A stretch of DNA of 64,000 nucleotides from Candidatus Bipolaricaulota bacterium (lineage in GTDB: Bacteria; Bipolaricaulota; Bipolaricaulia; UBA7950; UBA9294). The DNA lies in assembly GCA_028278555.1 (NCBI GenBank), contig JANQEA010000035.1, positions 152,089 through 216,088 of the forward strand. Direction: 5' to 3'. The notes under the pieces are model-generated. The model was not told the DNA's origin, did no database searches, and saw only the letters and a program-made list of their open reading frames with translations. Shown here one piece after another: positions 20,976-60,602 of this stretch (its first letter is position 1; each line of letters opens with the position of its first letter). The position numbers were made by a program, and so were the translations under genes.

Positions 20976-21533
20976 CTAGACCTGATAACCGCTGATCTCA
21001 TCCTCCGTCGCCTCGACCCCGAGCCCGAGAACGATCCGGTTGACGAAGTTGAAGTAGGCGACAATCAGGGCGATTGAGAGGATGTCTTCATCGGAGAAGC
21101 CCGCTGTGCGGAGGGACTCGATGTCCTCCTCGATGACGTTCTCCGGGGTCTCGGTCAGCTTCTGCGCGTACTCGAGCGCGACCGTCATTTTCGGGCCGAC
21201 GTCGACCGCCTCGCGATCCTCGACGAAGCGGGCGAGACGTTCCGGATCGCGCCAGTAGTGTCCGAGCGCTTCGGCGTGATGGCGGATGCAATACGGACAG
21301 CGATTCGACGTCGAGACGACGACGGCGATCATCTCGCGCTCCTCGCGGGAGAGGTCGGACCGCGAGAACATCGTCGCCAGGTAGAGATCCATGTGCGCCG
21401 TCATCGCCTCCGGCCGAAGGCTGTGGACGGCCATGATGTTCGACAGCTTCCCGCGCTTCCCCTTGACCCTCTCGAACGCAGCGCGTAGTTCGTCGTCCGC
21501 CTCGTCTTCACCGATCACGCGGATCCAGGCCAT
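20976..21533 (-). CDS. Carboxymuconolactone decarboxylase / AhpD-like peroxidase-family protein
   Basis: CxxC-H core (SNRCPYCIRHHAEALG). Start moved to the ATG at 21533 (MAWIRV…), which has GGAGG 5 nt upstream. Confidence 0.8.
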   Translation of the reverse strand: MAWIRVIGEDEADDELRAAFERVKGKRGKLSNIMAVHSLRPEAMTAHMDLYLATMFSRSDLSREEREMIAVVVSTSNRCPYCIRHHAEALGHYWRDPERLARFVEDREAVDVGPKMTVALEYAQKLTETPENVIEEDIESLRTAGFSDEDILSIALIVAYFNFVNRIVLGLGVEATEDEISGYQV

Positions 21534-21622
21534 CGATGCCTCCTCAGTCTGGCAGAATGGTCCGATCATATCCCGCCTCTTAGTGCGCATCAGCCGCTAT
21601 CGATCTCGCTCGCTCGATAGCC

Positions 21623-21650
21623 TTGACAATCGAATTCCGGAGCGTATACT
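21623..21650 (+). promoter_or_regulatory. Near-consensus sigma70-type promoter
   Basis: TTGACA (21623-21628), a 16-nt spacer, then TATACT (21645-21650), about 40 nt upstream of the 21693 ATG (GGGAGAG SD). Confidence 0.5.
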
Positions 21651-21654
21651 GCAG

Positions 21655-21677
21655 AGTACTTTGCGCTGCAAAGTACT
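21655..21677 (+). promoter_or_regulatory. Perfect inverted repeat AGTACTTTGC-gct-GCAAAGTACT (candidate operator)
   Basis: Perfect 10-bp arms with a 3-bp spacer, lying between the -10 element and the RBS. It is a likely binding site for the winged-helix regulator encoded at the end of the operon. Confidence 0.5.
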
Positions 21678-21692
21678 TGACGGGAGAGAACT

Positions 21693-22352
21693 ATGAACCA
21701 ACTGAGTCTTCGAAACATCGAGCGCAAGAGCTGGCAAAGCACGATGGGCGGCGGGGTGATCGAGATCATGTTCGGGATCATGATGTTCGCCGGCGCGACG
21801 TCGTATCTCGTCTCCGATCTCGGCGCGCCATCCGCTGCGAGCACCGCTACGTTGATCGCCCTTCACGCCGTGGCGCTTCTATTGATGCTTTGGCTGCGGA
21901 AGCGATACGTCCTTCCGCGGGTCGGGCGGGCCGCCTTCTCGGCGAACCGAAAGCGGCGTCTCCATCGCATGCGGATCCTTCTGGGGATTTGCGTCGCGGT
22001 GACGGTCGCGCTCGTCGTGCTGACGGTCCTCGCAACGCGGACCGGGACCTCTCTCCTCGGGCCCGTTTCGGCCGCTCCCGTGGTTGCCGTCGTTGCCGTG
22101 ATCGTTCTCGTGCCGCTCGGCGCGCTCGCGATCTTCCTCGACTACCCTCGATTCCTCCTTCTTGGCGGATTGGTCGTCGGGGCGGAGGCGATCCTCGCGC
22201 TGCTCGACAAGTACGGTTCGCCGCCGTTCGACCGGACACTCGTCTTCGGCTCGATCGGCCTGATCAGTCTGATCCTCGGGTTGGTCATCTTCGCTCGCTT
22301 CCTCCGCCGCGTACCACGACCCGAACACGAGGTGATCGATCATGCCGGCTAG
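21693..22352 (+). CDS. Polytopic membrane protein, paralog A (unknown function)
   Basis: 219 aa with about 5-6 TM helices. It shares a motif (LPRVGRAAFSANRKRRL versus VPRIGHATFRGRRKRSL) and topology with the next gene. Confidence 0.6.
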   Translation: MNQLSLRNIERKSWQSTMGGGVIEIMFGIMMFAGATSYLVSDLGAPSAASTATLIALHAVALLLMLWLRKRYVLPRVGRAAFSANRKRRLHRMRILLGICVAVTVALVVLTVLATRTGTSLLGPVSAAPVVAVVAVIVLVPLGALAIFLDYPRFLLLGGLVVGAEAILALLDKYGSPPFDRTLVFGSIGLISLILGLVIFARFLRRVPRPEHEVIDHAG

Positions 22353-22971
22353 TCCGGGATTGAGGGAACTCGAGCGGCGCGTCTGGCTGCGGACATTCGA
22401 ACACGGGCTCTGGGACGTCGCCATCGGCCTGCTGTTACTGGCGTTCGGGATCGGCATCCTGACGGAGTTCTACTGGCTCTCCGCCATCATCGTTCCGGTC
22501 AGCCTGCCTGCGATGCGAGACCTTGCCCGACGGGCGATTGTCCCGAGGATCGGGCACGCGACGTTCCGCGGGCGGCGAAAGAGGAGCCTTGTTCACGTTC
22601 AGCTGATCCTGACCGGCCTCGCCGTCGCCGGTGCCGGGATGTTCGCGTTCACGAGCTTCGCGTCACGGGGGACGGCGCCCGACTGGATGCTCTGGATACG
22701 GTCTCACTTCATCGTCGTCATCGGGCTGATCTGGGGCGGGGCACTCGGCGTCGCCGGGTGGACCGTCGATTTTCCCCGTCTCTACGCGTACGGCGCGATC
22801 CTCTTCGGAGCTCTGCTCGCCGTCGACCTCATCCCATCCGGCTACCACCTTGCCCACGCGCTGATCGCCGTCGGCGGACTGATCGCGCTCGTCGGGGCCG
22901 CGCTGTTCATCCGCTTCACCCGTCGGTATCCGCGTCACCCCAAACCGCTCGAAGGAGCGGCCGATGACTGA
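22342..22971 (+). CDS. Polytopic membrane protein, paralog B (unknown function)
   Basis: 209 aa. It overlaps the upstream gene by 11 nt and the downstream regulator gene by 8 nt. Confidence 0.6.
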   Translation: MPASPGLRELERRVWLRTFEHGLWDVAIGLLLLAFGIGILTEFYWLSAIIVPVSLPAMRDLARRAIVPRIGHATFRGRRKRSLVHVQLILTGLAVAGAGMFAFTSFASRGTAPDWMLWIRSHFIVVIGLIWGGALGVAGWTVDFPRLYAYGAILFGALLAVDLIPSGYHLAHALIAVGGLIALVGAALFIRFTRRYPRHPKPLEGAADD

Positions 22972-23284
22972 GGCGGAGCGCGACGATGCCCGCGGCCTGC
23001 AGATCGACCGCGCGATTCACGAGCCAGCACGCCTGCTGATCACCGCCCACCTCTACGTCGTCGAATCGGCCGACTACGTGTTCCTGATGGGGAACACCGG
23101 CCTGACATGGGGAAACCTCTCGTCGCACCTCTCCAAATTGGAGGCCACCGGCTACGTCGAGATCACCAAGGAGTTCGTCGAGAAGAAACCGCACACGATG
23201 GTCAAGCTGACGGAAGAAGGCCGGACGGCGTTCGACACCTATCGCCGCCAGATGAAGGCCCTGTTCGAGGATCTCCCGGACTGA
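22964..23284 (+). CDS. Small winged-helix transcriptional regulator (HTH_34/ArsR-MarR-like)
   Basis: 106 aa containing …LMGNTGLTWGNLSSHLSKLEATGYVEITKEFVEKKPHTMVKLTEEGRTAF…. Confidence 0.75.
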   Translation: MTEAERDDARGLQIDRAIHEPARLLITAHLYVVESADYVFLMGNTGLTWGNLSSHLSKLEATGYVEITKEFVEKKPHTMVKLTEEGRTAFDTYRRQMKALFEDLPD

Positions 23285-23316
23285 CAAGCGCAACCACCCG
23301 ATGGAGGAGGTGACCT

Positions 23317-23400
23317 ATGGAAGGAACCACGTGGATCCTGATCGGCCTCGGCGTTCTCGCCGTGATCGGCGCGATTATCCTCCTGTCACAGGCGAAGTAG
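23317..23400 (+). CDS. Candidate 27-aa single-pass membrane peptide (MEGTTWILIGLGVLAVIGAIILLSQAK)
   Basis: A GGAGGAGG SD lies 6 nt upstream of the ATG, and third codon positions are G/C-rich. It is too short for the ORF track. Track ORF 23301..23537 is an alternative reading in another frame with an R-rich composition typical of wrong-frame high-GC sequence. Confidence 0.3.
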   Translation: MEGTTWILIGLGVLAVIGAIILLSQAK

Positions 23401-23729
23401 AACATCTGGTCCGCCCGGTCGTTCTTCTTACGGCCGGGCATCTGTTTCCTCGACCGGATCGGCAATCCGAGATCGACGGCCAGGCTTCCGGACAGAAGGA
23501 CGGCGTCGATCACCCGGCTGAAGCTACCGGAACGTAAGCTTCACGGAACCGAGGTCGACTCGGACTCTCCAGCCTGTAGCCCCTATCGTGATGTACACAA
23601 CGACGTTCATGTCCCTCCTTGCACATCCAAGCGGTTCTCAGGACTGGCTCGTGAAGGTCGCATGCCGATTGCAGTGTAAGACCCAACCCTAATTCCGCGT
23701 AGCTCGTCTGTTCACATGAATGCTCAGAT

Positions 23730-23759: not shown

Positions 23760-23791
23760 GTCCCTGATTTCGACTATGGGAGATGGTTCAA

Positions 23792-25789
23792 ATGTCGAAA
23801 CTCGGGAAACGCATCTGCGTTGTGTGCGCGATCATCCTTGTGGCAGCTGTTGCTATGACCTGCGTTGCGCAGGAGTACGGAAAGGATAACCCACAAGCGT
23901 GGGGCGGATACCCTGAGGGATACAAGTTTGGTGCTGATGGAACCCAGCCGGATCATCCTGACGGATACGACGGCTGGCCAGCAGACCATCCCAACAATCC
24001 CAACAAGGGCTACGCCGGCAAAGGCGGCAAGGGCGCGGACGCGACTAAAGAAGGCCACGCAGCTGGGAATGGAGGGAAGGGTGGTGCTGGACCAAAGAAT
24101 GATGATGGCCCCCTTAATTCCTGGAACGGCGGCAAAGGCGGAGCCGGCGGAGGCAGCTCAGTTCCGGGAATACGCGGTGGAAATGGCGGCAAAGGCGGCG
24201 ATTCCACACACGGAGCCGGAGGCGATGGCGGCAATGGCGGCGATGGCGGCGAGGACGATGTGACGGTGAAGCACTCCGCCGGCGGTAACGGCGGCAAAGG
24301 CGGAGACAGCGTCAACGGTAACGGCGGCAAGGGCGGAGACGCTGGGAAGGGTAGCGACAGTGCGCCCGGCGGAAACGGCGGCGACGGAGGCACCAGCATT
24401 CATAAGACAGGAGGAGCGGGGGGTGACGGCGGCGACGGCGGCAGCAATGGCGAGGGTGGCAACGGAGGAAGTGGCGGTCACACGAGACATGGGACGGGCG
24501 GACCGGGCGGCAATGGCGGAAACGGCGGCGCGAGCAAGATTCCAGGACAGAAGGGAAAGACGGGAGGTGAGGGCGGCGATGGCGGCAATGGGTATGTCGG
24601 CGGTCCCTGCGACAAGGTAGGTAACGGGGCCGGAGGCAAGGGCGGACAAGGCGGGCAAGGCGGCGCGGGTTACTCTGGCGACGATGAGAACGACGCAACG
24701 GGCGGCGGGGATGGTGGGAAAGGCGGGGCCGGAGGAAATGCCGGAGACGGGGAAGATGCATCCGCGGGCAATGGCGGGGATGGTGGGAAAGGCGGCACAG
24801 CGAACAAGAAACCTGCAATTGGGGGCACTGGCGGGAAGGGTGGCAAGGGCGGCCGCTCTGGGCTCGGCAACAAAGGCGGCACTGGCGGAAAGGGTGGACC
24901 AGGAGGAGATGGACCAGACAAGCATGGCGGAGAAGGCGGGGCTCCTGGTGAAGGCGGAGACTATTCCCCATCTGGCCCCATGAAGCCTGGCAAAGGAGGC
25001 ATGGGTGGCAGCGGCGGAAAGGGAAGCCCCGAAAAAAAGGATCGAAGTCGTGAGAGAGGTGCCTCCGGCTCTTGTGTGAGATACGTCTGCCTTCCCTTCT
25101 CAGGTTTCGGATGGGAACGGGCTTGGACCTCGGACACTGATCGGGCCGAGTGTGTTGGCTTGGGCCTTTGCTGCGTCGGCCTAGATGTGGGCGTCGAAGT
25201 CGTGACAGTCGACCATGCCGGAATGCTGTCCGACATCATAGATCTCACACCACTGCTAGGCTGGTGGAGCAGCGAGTCGTACTCCCCGATGATCGGCGTG
25301 GCCATCACTGCGCTTCTCCCGGAATGCGGAACCGGGCTACCTCTTGTCGACATAGCCTATGGCTCGGCCAGCATCCCTGTGAGTGGTCACGCCGAGTGGA
25401 TCCTCGAAGATTCCGATTATGGACTCGCGGAGATCCAGGGCATCCTTGGCATAACCCGTGCGTCCTTGGGATTCGGGATGCGCATCGGTGCACTCTGCGA
25501 ATGCCCTGTGCTGACACCGTACGTCGACCTCAAAGCGGGAATCGCACAGTCGTGGTTAGAGTTCGAGGATGTCCAATCCGGGATGGATTCGGTAGATCTG
25601 CGGACACTGCTAGAAACTAACACAAGTGCTATCACACAGTACTACGTGCAAGCTTCCATGGGAGCCTCGTTCTCACTCGGTCCACAGCTTGACCTTCGTC
25701 TTGTCGGGACTGGAAGGATCTCGGGGGGAGCGGATCAATCAACCCATTTCGAGTTCGGGGGAAGTCTGTCACTGGGGCTCCGCTTCTAG
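23792..25789 (+). CDS. Secreted glycine-rich repeat protein (PGRS-like GGxGGxGG modules) with a C-terminal beta-barrel-like domain ending in Phe
   Basis: Start moved to the ATG at 23792 (MSKLGKR…), which has GGGAGA 8 nt upstream. Signal peptide RICVVCAIILVAAVAMTCVAQE. About 300 aa of GGNGGKGGD / GGDGGNGG modules. A Cys-rich linker precedes a ~200-aa C-terminus of amphipathic beta-strands ending …FGGSLSLGLRF. Confidence 0.75.
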   Translation: MSKLGKRICVVCAIILVAAVAMTCVAQEYGKDNPQAWGGYPEGYKFGADGTQPDHPDGYDGWPADHPNNPNKGYAGKGGKGADATKEGHAAGNGGKGGAGPKNDDGPLNSWNGGKGGAGGGSSVPGIRGGNGGKGGDSTHGAGGDGGNGGDGGEDDVTVKHSAGGNGGKGGDSVNGNGGKGGDAGKGSDSAPGGNGGDGGTSIHKTGGAGGDGGDGGSNGEGGNGGSGGHTRHGTGGPGGNGGNGGASKIPGQKGKTGGEGGDGGNGYVGGPCDKVGNGAGGKGGQGGQGGAGYSGDDENDATGGGDGGKGGAGGNAGDGEDASAGNGGDGGKGGTANKKPAIGGTGGKGGKGGRSGLGNKGGTGGKGGPGGDGPDKHGGEGGAPGEGGDYSPSGPMKPGKGGMGGSGGKGSPEKKDRSRERGASGSCVRYVCLPFSGFGWERAWTSDTDRAECVGLGLCCVGLDVGVEVVTVDHAGMLSDIIDLTPLLGWWSSESYSPMIGVAITALLPECGTGLPLVDIAYGSASIPVSGHAEWILEDSDYGLAEIQGILGITRASLGFGMRIGALCECPVLTPYVDLKAGIAQSWLEFEDVQSGMDSVDLRTLLETNTSAITQYYVQASMGASFSLGPQLDLRLVGTGRISGGADQSTHFEFGGSLSLGLRF

Positions 25790-60440: not shown

Positions 60441-60516
60441 TGGTGGGTGGTACAGGGCTCGAACCTGTGACCTCATGCACGTCAAGCATGCGCTCTCCCA
60501 GCTGAGCTAACCACCC
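60441..60516 (-). tRNA. tRNA-Val (anticodon GAC)
   Basis: Cloverleaf folded by hand: 7-bp acceptor stem GGGTGGT/ACCACCC, D-arm GCTCAGCTGGGAGAGC, anticodon stem CATGC/GCATG with loop TTGACGT, T-arm GGTTCGAGCCC, and an encoded CCA. Confidence 0.9.
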
Positions 60517-60527
60517 ATCTCGTGCTC

Positions 60528-60602
60528 TGGAGGCGGCGACCGGATTCGAACCGGTGAATCAGGGATTTGCAGTCCCTTGCCTTACCGCTTGGCTACGCCG
60601 CC
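60528..60602 (-). tRNA. tRNA-Cys (anticodon GCA)
   Basis: Acceptor stem GGCGGCG/CGCCGCC, anticodon stem AGGGA/TCCCT with loop CTGCAAA, T-arm ACCGGTTCGAATCCGGT, discriminator U, and an encoded CCA. Confidence 0.9.

Follow-up and report, generated by a model that had tools for sequence, protein, structure and literature searches.

In the BlaR1-BlaI and MecR1-MecI systems, the gene of a membrane sensor is followed by that of a winged-helix autorepressor, and a palindromic operator lies at the system's own promoter. PadR regulators pair with membrane proteins of the DUF1700 or DUF1129 type, in combinations that are largely uncharacterized. In Bacillus subtilis, SdpI sequesters the ArsR-type autorepressor SdpR (PMC2910880), and the model of SdpI places its repressor-binding motif on the cytoplasmic side (PMC2910880). 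Here, we describe an operon from a Candidatus Bipolaricaulota bacterium (assembly GCA_028278555.1, contig JANQEA010000035.1) that encodes two paralogous membrane proteins, a small winged-helix regulator and a 27-amino-acid (aa) transmembrane (TM) peptide behind a promoter with a predicted palindromic operator. It lies in a stretch of 64,000 nucleotides (nt; positions 152,089 to 216,088 of the forward strand), which was analyzed as a whole and is called the window below; all positions at this locus are those of the window.

An earlier note on this DNA had reported the promoter, the palindrome, a Shine-Dalgarno (SD) sequence, the start codon, the open reading frames (ORFs) and the peptide, and a check of the sequence and its ORFs located all of them at the positions given here. 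The first gene, memA (21693-22352, plus strand), is an ORF of 219 aa encoding a six-TM protein of an uncharacterized family (E 1.3e-44 with the family hidden Markov model, HMM). Its ATG at 21693 follows the SD sequence GGGAGAG (21682-21688, plus strand), as read from the DNA, and a GGAG-type SD stands at an equal distance before the first membrane gene in orthologous loci. The start of its paralog memB (22342-22971, plus strand; 209 aa) overlaps the memA stop by 11 nt, and the start of the regulator gene (22964-23284, plus strand; 106 aa), which encodes an HTH_34 protein with an ArsR-like winged helix, overlaps the memB stop by 8 nt. The single-pass TM peptide, pep27 (ORF 23317-23400, plus strand), has its own SD, GGAGGAGG, at 23303-23310. 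The operon is closed by a terminator-like, GC-rich hairpin (23413-23439, plus strand) with a ten-pair stem, eight of the pairs being GC, and a weak T-tract. No second copy of either the membrane family or the regulator family was found in the window besides the operon.

Upstream of memA, a sigma-70-type promoter (21623-21650, plus strand) consists of TTGACA (21623-21628), a 16-nt spacer and TATACT (21645-21650); it fits 11 of the 12 consensus positions and is the sole sigma-70-like site between 21300 and 23900, where shuffled sequences gave a mean of 0.4. The perfect 10-3-10 inverted repeat described in the earlier note, AGTACTTTGC-GCT-GCAAAGTACT, is present at 21655-21677, but the predicted functional operator is longer, about 27-29 bp, with an imperfect 13-3-13 palindrome over 21652-21680. 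The palindrome starts 2-5 nt past the -10 box, and the predicted transcription start, about 7 nt after the -10 box, falls within its left arm. With up to two mismatches allowed, the conserved core ACTTTGC-GCT-GCAAAGT (21658-21674) occurs once in the window, against 0.02 occurrences expected by chance.

Conservation was assessed by a regulator scan with one genome per species, followed by tblastn and HMM searches of the loci. The operator was searched for as N[CG]TTTG[CT]-N3-[GA]CAAA[CG]N with at most one mismatch, the core being ACTTTGY-N3-RCAAAGT. Of 30 loci from genomes, plasmids and protein look-ups, 24 have this motif 23-145 nt before their first membrane gene, nearly always as the single match in the locus, and in almost every locus the core stands between the -10 box and the SD of that gene. 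Metagenome loci were usable where the sequence covered 200 nt or more in front of the first membrane gene detected; of 43 such loci, 41 have the motif no more than 200 nt before that gene. A position matrix built from 21 sites has an invariant T.TG in the left arm and CAAA in the right arm, and a symmetric swap, from C-G to G-C at positions 8 and 22, separates clades. The placement of the motif also recurs: a -35/-10 pair directly precedes it in Bipolaricaulota, Planctomycetota and Firmicute-like loci, and in Bathyarchaeota it abuts a TATA-like box on the upstream side of the box. At two loci, L016 (2535-2580) and L017 (2702-2745), a second, spacer-less palindrome, CAAAGTACTTTG, follows the TATA-like box, which is then bracketed by sites.

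The motif is also kept beside membrane proteins of another kind. On the megaplasmid of Thermomicrobium roseum DSM 5159 (NC_011961; locus L030, 159410-160319; genes TRD_RS10025/10020), a perfect 12-3-12 operator, GGAGTACTTTGT-ATA-ACAAAGTACTCC, is followed by the gene of an unrelated 188-aa membrane protein and by an HTH_34 regulator gene, which is in turn overlapped by the gene of an ABC ATPase, with a permease gene also downstream. The haloarchaeon Natronosalvus halobius carries the motif ACTTTGCATTGCAAACT. The upstream membrane proteins of T. roseum and N. halobius go undetected by the family HMM (E 6 and 0.42, respectively), and the motif therefore tracks the regulator. The proposal in the earlier note that the palindrome serves as an autoregulatory operator is thus strongly supported by phylogenetic footprinting, both through the counts above and through the way the motif accompanies the regulator, and autorepression of the operon through binding of the regulator to this palindrome is in our view highly probable. 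Extra one-mismatch matches to the motif in loci L054, L058, L060 and L068 were considered as regulon sites; they lie inside ORFs, have poor flanks and were judged to be due to chance.

The regulator belongs to the Pfam family HTH_34 (PF13601), as had been read from the sequence, with a match well over the cutoff (E 4.1e-24; 85 bits against a cutoff of 27) that covers profile positions 2-79 of 80. Its nearest solved relative is PH1061 (PDB 1ub9; E 2.6e-5 over residues 17-104). The predicted recognition helix, TxGNLSxHLxKLE, shows at least 90% conservation in 81 distinct homologs, and these proteins comprise a winged helix and dimerization helices with no additional domain. Across phyla and across both Bacteria and Archaea, regulator identity ranges from 61% to 77%, compared with only 23-42% for the adjoining membrane protein. 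Canonical metal sensing by the regulator was rejected on the basis of sequence: the score against the NCBIfam model HTH_metalloreg (NF033788) is 20.3 bits, under the cutoff of 55, Cys occurs at no column of the 81 homologs, and none of them has an alpha5 metal site of Asp, His or Glu, the C-terminal helix being without a conserved His. The histidines conserved to at least 90% are H19, in the HEPxRL motif of alpha1, and H55, in the recognition helix; H29 and H77 reach about 70%. A search of PADLOC and PHROG returned generic winged-helix similarity only, for example to Csa3, and a literature search on HTH_34/PF13601 yielded no paper on the family in this sense and no characterized member among the PF13601-type regulators examined.

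The membrane genes accompany the regulator in a variable number of copies. One to three genes of the membrane family lie directly upstream of the regulator gene, usually overlapping, in 19 of 25 genome loci (Bipolaricaulota, Chloroflexia, Planctomycetota and Bathyarchaeota), and module loci overall extend over many bacterial phyla and archaea. Among the 43 metagenome loci, 13 have one membrane gene, 27 have two and 3 have three. The longest array, on a Firmicute-like contig (L027/L028, 2709-6783), comprises six tandem, mostly overlapping membrane paralogs followed by an HTH_34 gene, with a promoter (TTGACA-17-TATCAT) and an operator before the array and with a SpoIVB-type peptidase and GreA as neighbors; in L028, the first membrane copy is split into two ORFs. 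A second contig, obtained like this one from context look-ups of distant membrane-family members, has a single membrane copy. In the cultured Chloroflexota ZRK35, the pair (JR338_13035/13030) sits on a plasmid and the membrane protein is of this family. Conservation of the flanking genes stops at close relatives, which makes the module autonomous. Conservation of the gene order, which the earlier note had named as a check, was confirmed: one to six membrane genes followed by an HTH_34 gene recur in Bipolaricaulota, Chloroflexota, Planctomycetota, the Firmicute-like contig, Bathyarchaeota and others, but there is no fixed four-gene unit, the conserved core being the operator, n membrane paralogs and the regulator. 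The link between the membrane family and HTH_34 comes from about 100 loci, found mostly through the regulator, with three look-ups (L026-L029) that began from the membrane protein; many of the loci are on contigs of metagenome-assembled genomes (MAGs) or metagenomes, including some that are present in more than one collection and some that contain frameshifts.

More distant HTH_34 regulators were seen in Chloroflexia, Bdellovibrionales, Spirochaetales, Sphaerisporangium and Streptomyces (L021-L025), with 38-64% identity over a full-length match and up to 73% over a partial one. At these loci, the gene before the HTH_34 gene, often overlapping it, encodes a multi-TM protein of 147-297 aa from other families, several of these proteins having a cytoplasmic helix at the N-terminus, and the Bdellovibrionales locus retains an operator-like palindrome. 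A separate protein, P0326, has an HTH_34 domain fused to an ABC ATPase domain.

MemA and MemB are homologous over their full length (BLASTP, 28% identity, E 5e-14), which bears out the paralogy proposed for them, and the PR(V/I)G...F loop motif that had been noticed in both corresponds to the nearly invariant family residues P68, R69 and G71. The view that they are not assignable to a characterized family was also correct: neither protein has a significant match in Pfam, NCBIfam, PADLOC or PHROG, the family profile found nothing below E 0.1 among PDB sequences, and Foldseek with a membrane-protein model found no match in PDB or BFVD. No Pfam family was matched consistently by 57 diverse members of the membrane family; DUF1129 gave weak matches in 2 of the 57 (best E 2e-4), which are sub-threshold and sporadic and do not establish homology. 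A search with MemB gave about 100 homologs, chiefly from Bipolaricaulota, and a profile search of 1.84 billion representatives returned at least 2,461 clusters at 50% identity with E<=1e-3, or 1,486 with E<=1e-10, a census that carries no genomic context.

The AlphaFold2 model of MemB, a confident one (predicted local distance difference score, pLDDT, 81; predicted template-modeling score, pTM, 0.74), is entirely helical: an amphipathic helix at the N-terminus continues into the first of six TM helices. The positive-inside rule puts both termini and loops 2-3 and 4-5 in the cytoplasm. All conserved family motifs (E11, G22, D25, P68-R69-x-G71, R146 and a C-terminal RF..YP) lie on this side; the K/R-rich segments there are better conserved than any other part of the proteins, and the three outer loops, which are short, vary. 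Two natural tandem fusions of the membrane protein were found (P0115 and P0123). Together with the overlapping start and stop codons and the arrays of one to six copies, these fusions suggest hetero-oligomers, and we put the chance that the MemA and MemB paralogs form one at about even.

The peptide is conserved within a narrower range. An ORF of 25-27 aa directly follows the regulator gene in nine of ten Bipolaricaulota-type genome loci and lies 1.9 kb downstream in the tenth (L002). Its conserved features are the SD (GGAGGTG), the start codon, the length and a single hydrophobic helix; codon differences comprise 121 synonymous and 130 non-synonymous changes, the replacements being conservative, a pattern that indicates purifying selection. 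Loci of other phyla lack the peptide, and it is uncalled as a gene in the protein collection. As the earlier note had predicted, pep27 is, judged from this conservation, a real gene, and it is a clade-specific accessory one, restricted to the Bipolaricaulota clade. One Bipolaricaulota contig (L004, 4001-4414 and 6923-7829; also L045) has two copies of the regulator and 27-aa peptide genes, one after a 5'-truncated membrane gene and the other with neither membrane gene nor operator, a pattern suggestive of partial duplication or rearrangement.

We favor a model, probable when taken as a whole, in which the operon is a self-contained, negatively autoregulated unit whose membrane proteins are both its cargo and the input that controls the repressor. 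RNA polymerase would initiate at the TTGACA/TATACT promoter, and a regulator dimer would bind the palindrome of about 27 bp over the transcription start and block initiation; in archaea, repression would act through occlusion of the region of the TATA box and the B recognition element (BRE). The transcript would yield two translationally coupled six-TM paralogs, most likely as a hetero-oligomer, followed by the regulator and the TM peptide, the latter probably as an accessory subunit particular to the clade. In response to a cue at the membrane or envelope, the membrane proteins would then capture or release the repressor, in the manner of SdpI with SdpR in B. subtilis. The membrane proteins are proposed as the input because the regulator has no ligand or metal module and the conserved membrane motifs face the cytoplasm; translational coupling of the genes lends this indirect support as well. 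We are tentative about this part of the model: control of the repressor by the membrane proteins, drawn from the analogy with SdpI, is possible but has somewhat less than an even chance. In a broader and rather unlikely form of the same idea, the six-TM family may be a new and very widespread group of membrane-embedded sensor or immunity proteins that control an ArsR-like repressor conserved across domains by capturing it at the membrane, the SdpI/SdpR logic having arisen independently, with the one to six paralogs combining into mixed oligomers and thereby widening what can be sensed or resisted.

Several observations weigh against the favored model. Capture at the membrane is proposed by analogy, SdpI having no match here and the gene order being reversed, and the pairing of related regulators with other membrane families indicates that a specific partner may not be needed. 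Both tandem fusions, P0115 and P0123, stem from short metagenome contigs. There is also no reliable Rosetta-stone link between membrane protein and regulator: the sole in-frame fusion of the two within the family, a 314-aa ORF in a Chloroflexia MAG (L011, 3332-4276), was rejected as evidence of interaction and is a probable indel artifact, its close relatives all having separate 208-aa proteins and sister MAGs of the same project (L012, L013) having separate overlapping genes with extra frameshifts. The hybrid proteins P0319, P0325, P0327 and P0328 look unreliable in a similar way. The evidence on operator and regulator applies equally to a plain autorepressor, in which the regulator itself would sense a small molecule or physical cue and the membrane proteins would be cargo without feedback, such as a transporter, a channel or an envelope-protective complex. 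Related HTH_34 regulators behind unrelated membrane proteins, in T. roseum ahead of an ABC transporter, suggest just such a generic role as regulator of membrane cargo. We nevertheless give this reading perhaps one chance in four: the 81 regulators offer no Cys, alpha5 metal site or extra domain with which to sense, the regulator of the operon scores 20 bits against 55 on the ArsR/SmtB model, the membrane family matches no known transporter by sequence or fold, and its conservation lies on the cytoplasmic face and not in a pore or at an outer site.

A toxin-antitoxin-like or abortive-infection module, with a membrane toxin encoded first, as in mqsRA or higBA, and an autorepressing winged-helix antitoxin, would also be a small autonomous unit of overlapping genes with a palindromic operator at its promoter, and the spread of the module over phyla and both domains, its presence on megaplasmids and its unconserved neighbors outside close relatives would suit it. 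It is improbable on other grounds: the membrane proteins and pep27 have no PADLOC or PHROG match, a scan of 2.9 million viral contigs found no related locus and no relative of the regulator, arrays of one to six proteins, each of about 200 aa with six TM helices, do not resemble known toxins of such systems, conservation is far higher in the putative antitoxin than in the putative toxin, which reverses the usual pattern, and the GC content of the operon, 64%, is close to the 63% of its surroundings in the window. Less probable still, to the point of being very doubtful, is a role for the palindrome as RNA, in a 5'-terminal stem-loop of the mRNA acting on stability or translation, with HTH_34 regulation occurring elsewhere or not at all. 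In bacteria the palindrome does lie just past the predicted start, so that a 10-bp hairpin would be transcribed about 5 nt before the SD, and the swap between clades at positions 8 and 22 keeps the pairing. The archaeal motif, however, stands upstream of or around the TATA box; where upstream it would not be transcribed, and therefore it probably acts as DNA. T-to-C changes in the left half give uncompensated C/A mismatches in five loci, which fit half-site degeneracy and not RNA pairing, and with A/A and T/T mismatches counted as well, several loci have uncompensated mismatches in halves that stay near the consensus. The palindrome also has no match to an Rfam family. Archaeal placement, these mismatches and conservation across phyla of the sequence, with its invariant T.TG and CAAA, and not merely of the pairing favor a protein operator over an RNA hairpin.

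Around the operon, an upstream neighbor is a divergent gene for a CMD/AhpD-like "peroxidase-related enzyme" (20976-21590, minus strand; TIGR01926, E 1.6e-45), the true start of which is probably an internal methionine (MAWIRV); such a divergent neighbor was seen again in the Bipolaricaulota loci L002, L054, L058, L060 and L068. A DUF885 gene, also divergent, lies upstream of the operon as well. Directly downstream, a 668-aa ORF (23783-25789, plus strand) with no Pfam match starts with a hydrophobic N-terminal part, continues with about 400 aa in glycine-rich repeats of the GGxGGxGG type and ends in a non-repetitive C-terminal third. Adjacent genes for tRNA-Val(GAC) and tRNA-Cys(GCA) (60441-60602, minus strand) were the sole Rfam and ARAGORN matches in the window. 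The nearest relatives of the locus are on MAG contigs labeled Candidatus Bipolaricaulota or "uncultured Thermotogae" (L001-L006), the latter label being found on the closest genome relatives and the former on slightly more distant ones and on named proteins; the labels may reflect inconsistent taxonomy between submitters.

Compared with described systems, the operon resembles the PadR pairs with DUF1700 or DUF1129 in that a short regulator goes with a protein of about 200 aa in which a cytoplasmic N-terminal helix precedes the TM helices. With BlaR1-BlaI and MecR1-MecI it shares a membrane-first order, a small winged-helix regulator encoded last and a palindrome at its own promoter. Unlike BlaR1 and MecR1, its membrane proteins are much smaller with short outer loops and lack a peptidase M56 or penicillin-binding sensor domain: M56 has no match in the four proteins of the operon at E<=1, and no HExxH occurs among the invariant and nearly invariant columns of the membrane family. 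The Penicillinase_R family of BlaI and MecI has no match to these proteins either, again at E<=1. The regulator itself is of the same length class as PH1061 of Pyrococcus horikoshii (1ub9) and has the same GNL.SH recognition-helix motif; PH1061 is a distant relative that its deposit names a hypothetical protein, and a full-text literature search for it gave no relevant paper.

SdpR-SdpI shares several features: a small autonomous operon with an ArsR-like autorepressor (a predicted one here) of about 100 aa, without a metal site, and a six-TM protein of about 200 aa, a regulator gene that adjoins or overlaps the membrane gene, and conserved membrane motifs on the cytoplasmic side. The families differ, however. 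SdpI (PF13630) matches neither MemA nor MemB at E<=1, nor any of the 57 family members at E<=0.01, and the regulator falls in HTH_34 and not in the SdpR-type ArsR models; in addition, the regulator gene comes last, reversing the order, the membrane gene occurs in one to six copies and no linked toxin gene was seen. If it is true that the membrane proteins gate the repressor, the module would provide signaling by membrane sequestration with a second case, independent of the first and far more widespread; if they do not, what is left is an operator-repressor pair from two domains of life, a candidate for use as an orthogonal genetic part. Its value lies in its breadth, in a regulator-operator pair shared by Bacteria and Archaea and in its testability in cultured organisms, two of which, Chloroflexota ZRK35 and T. 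roseum DSM 5159, have the pair (next to an unrelated membrane protein in the latter). What had been an anonymous combination of a "hypothetical protein" and a "transcriptional regulator" thus becomes a directly testable regulatory system. Taken together, SdpRI and, in a looser sense, BlaR1/BlaI already exemplify the logic of coupling a small winged-helix autorepressor with a polytopic membrane protein; new here are a membrane family without a Pfam or NCBIfam entry, a fixed module architecture, a conserved operator and a regulator common to Bacteria and Archaea.

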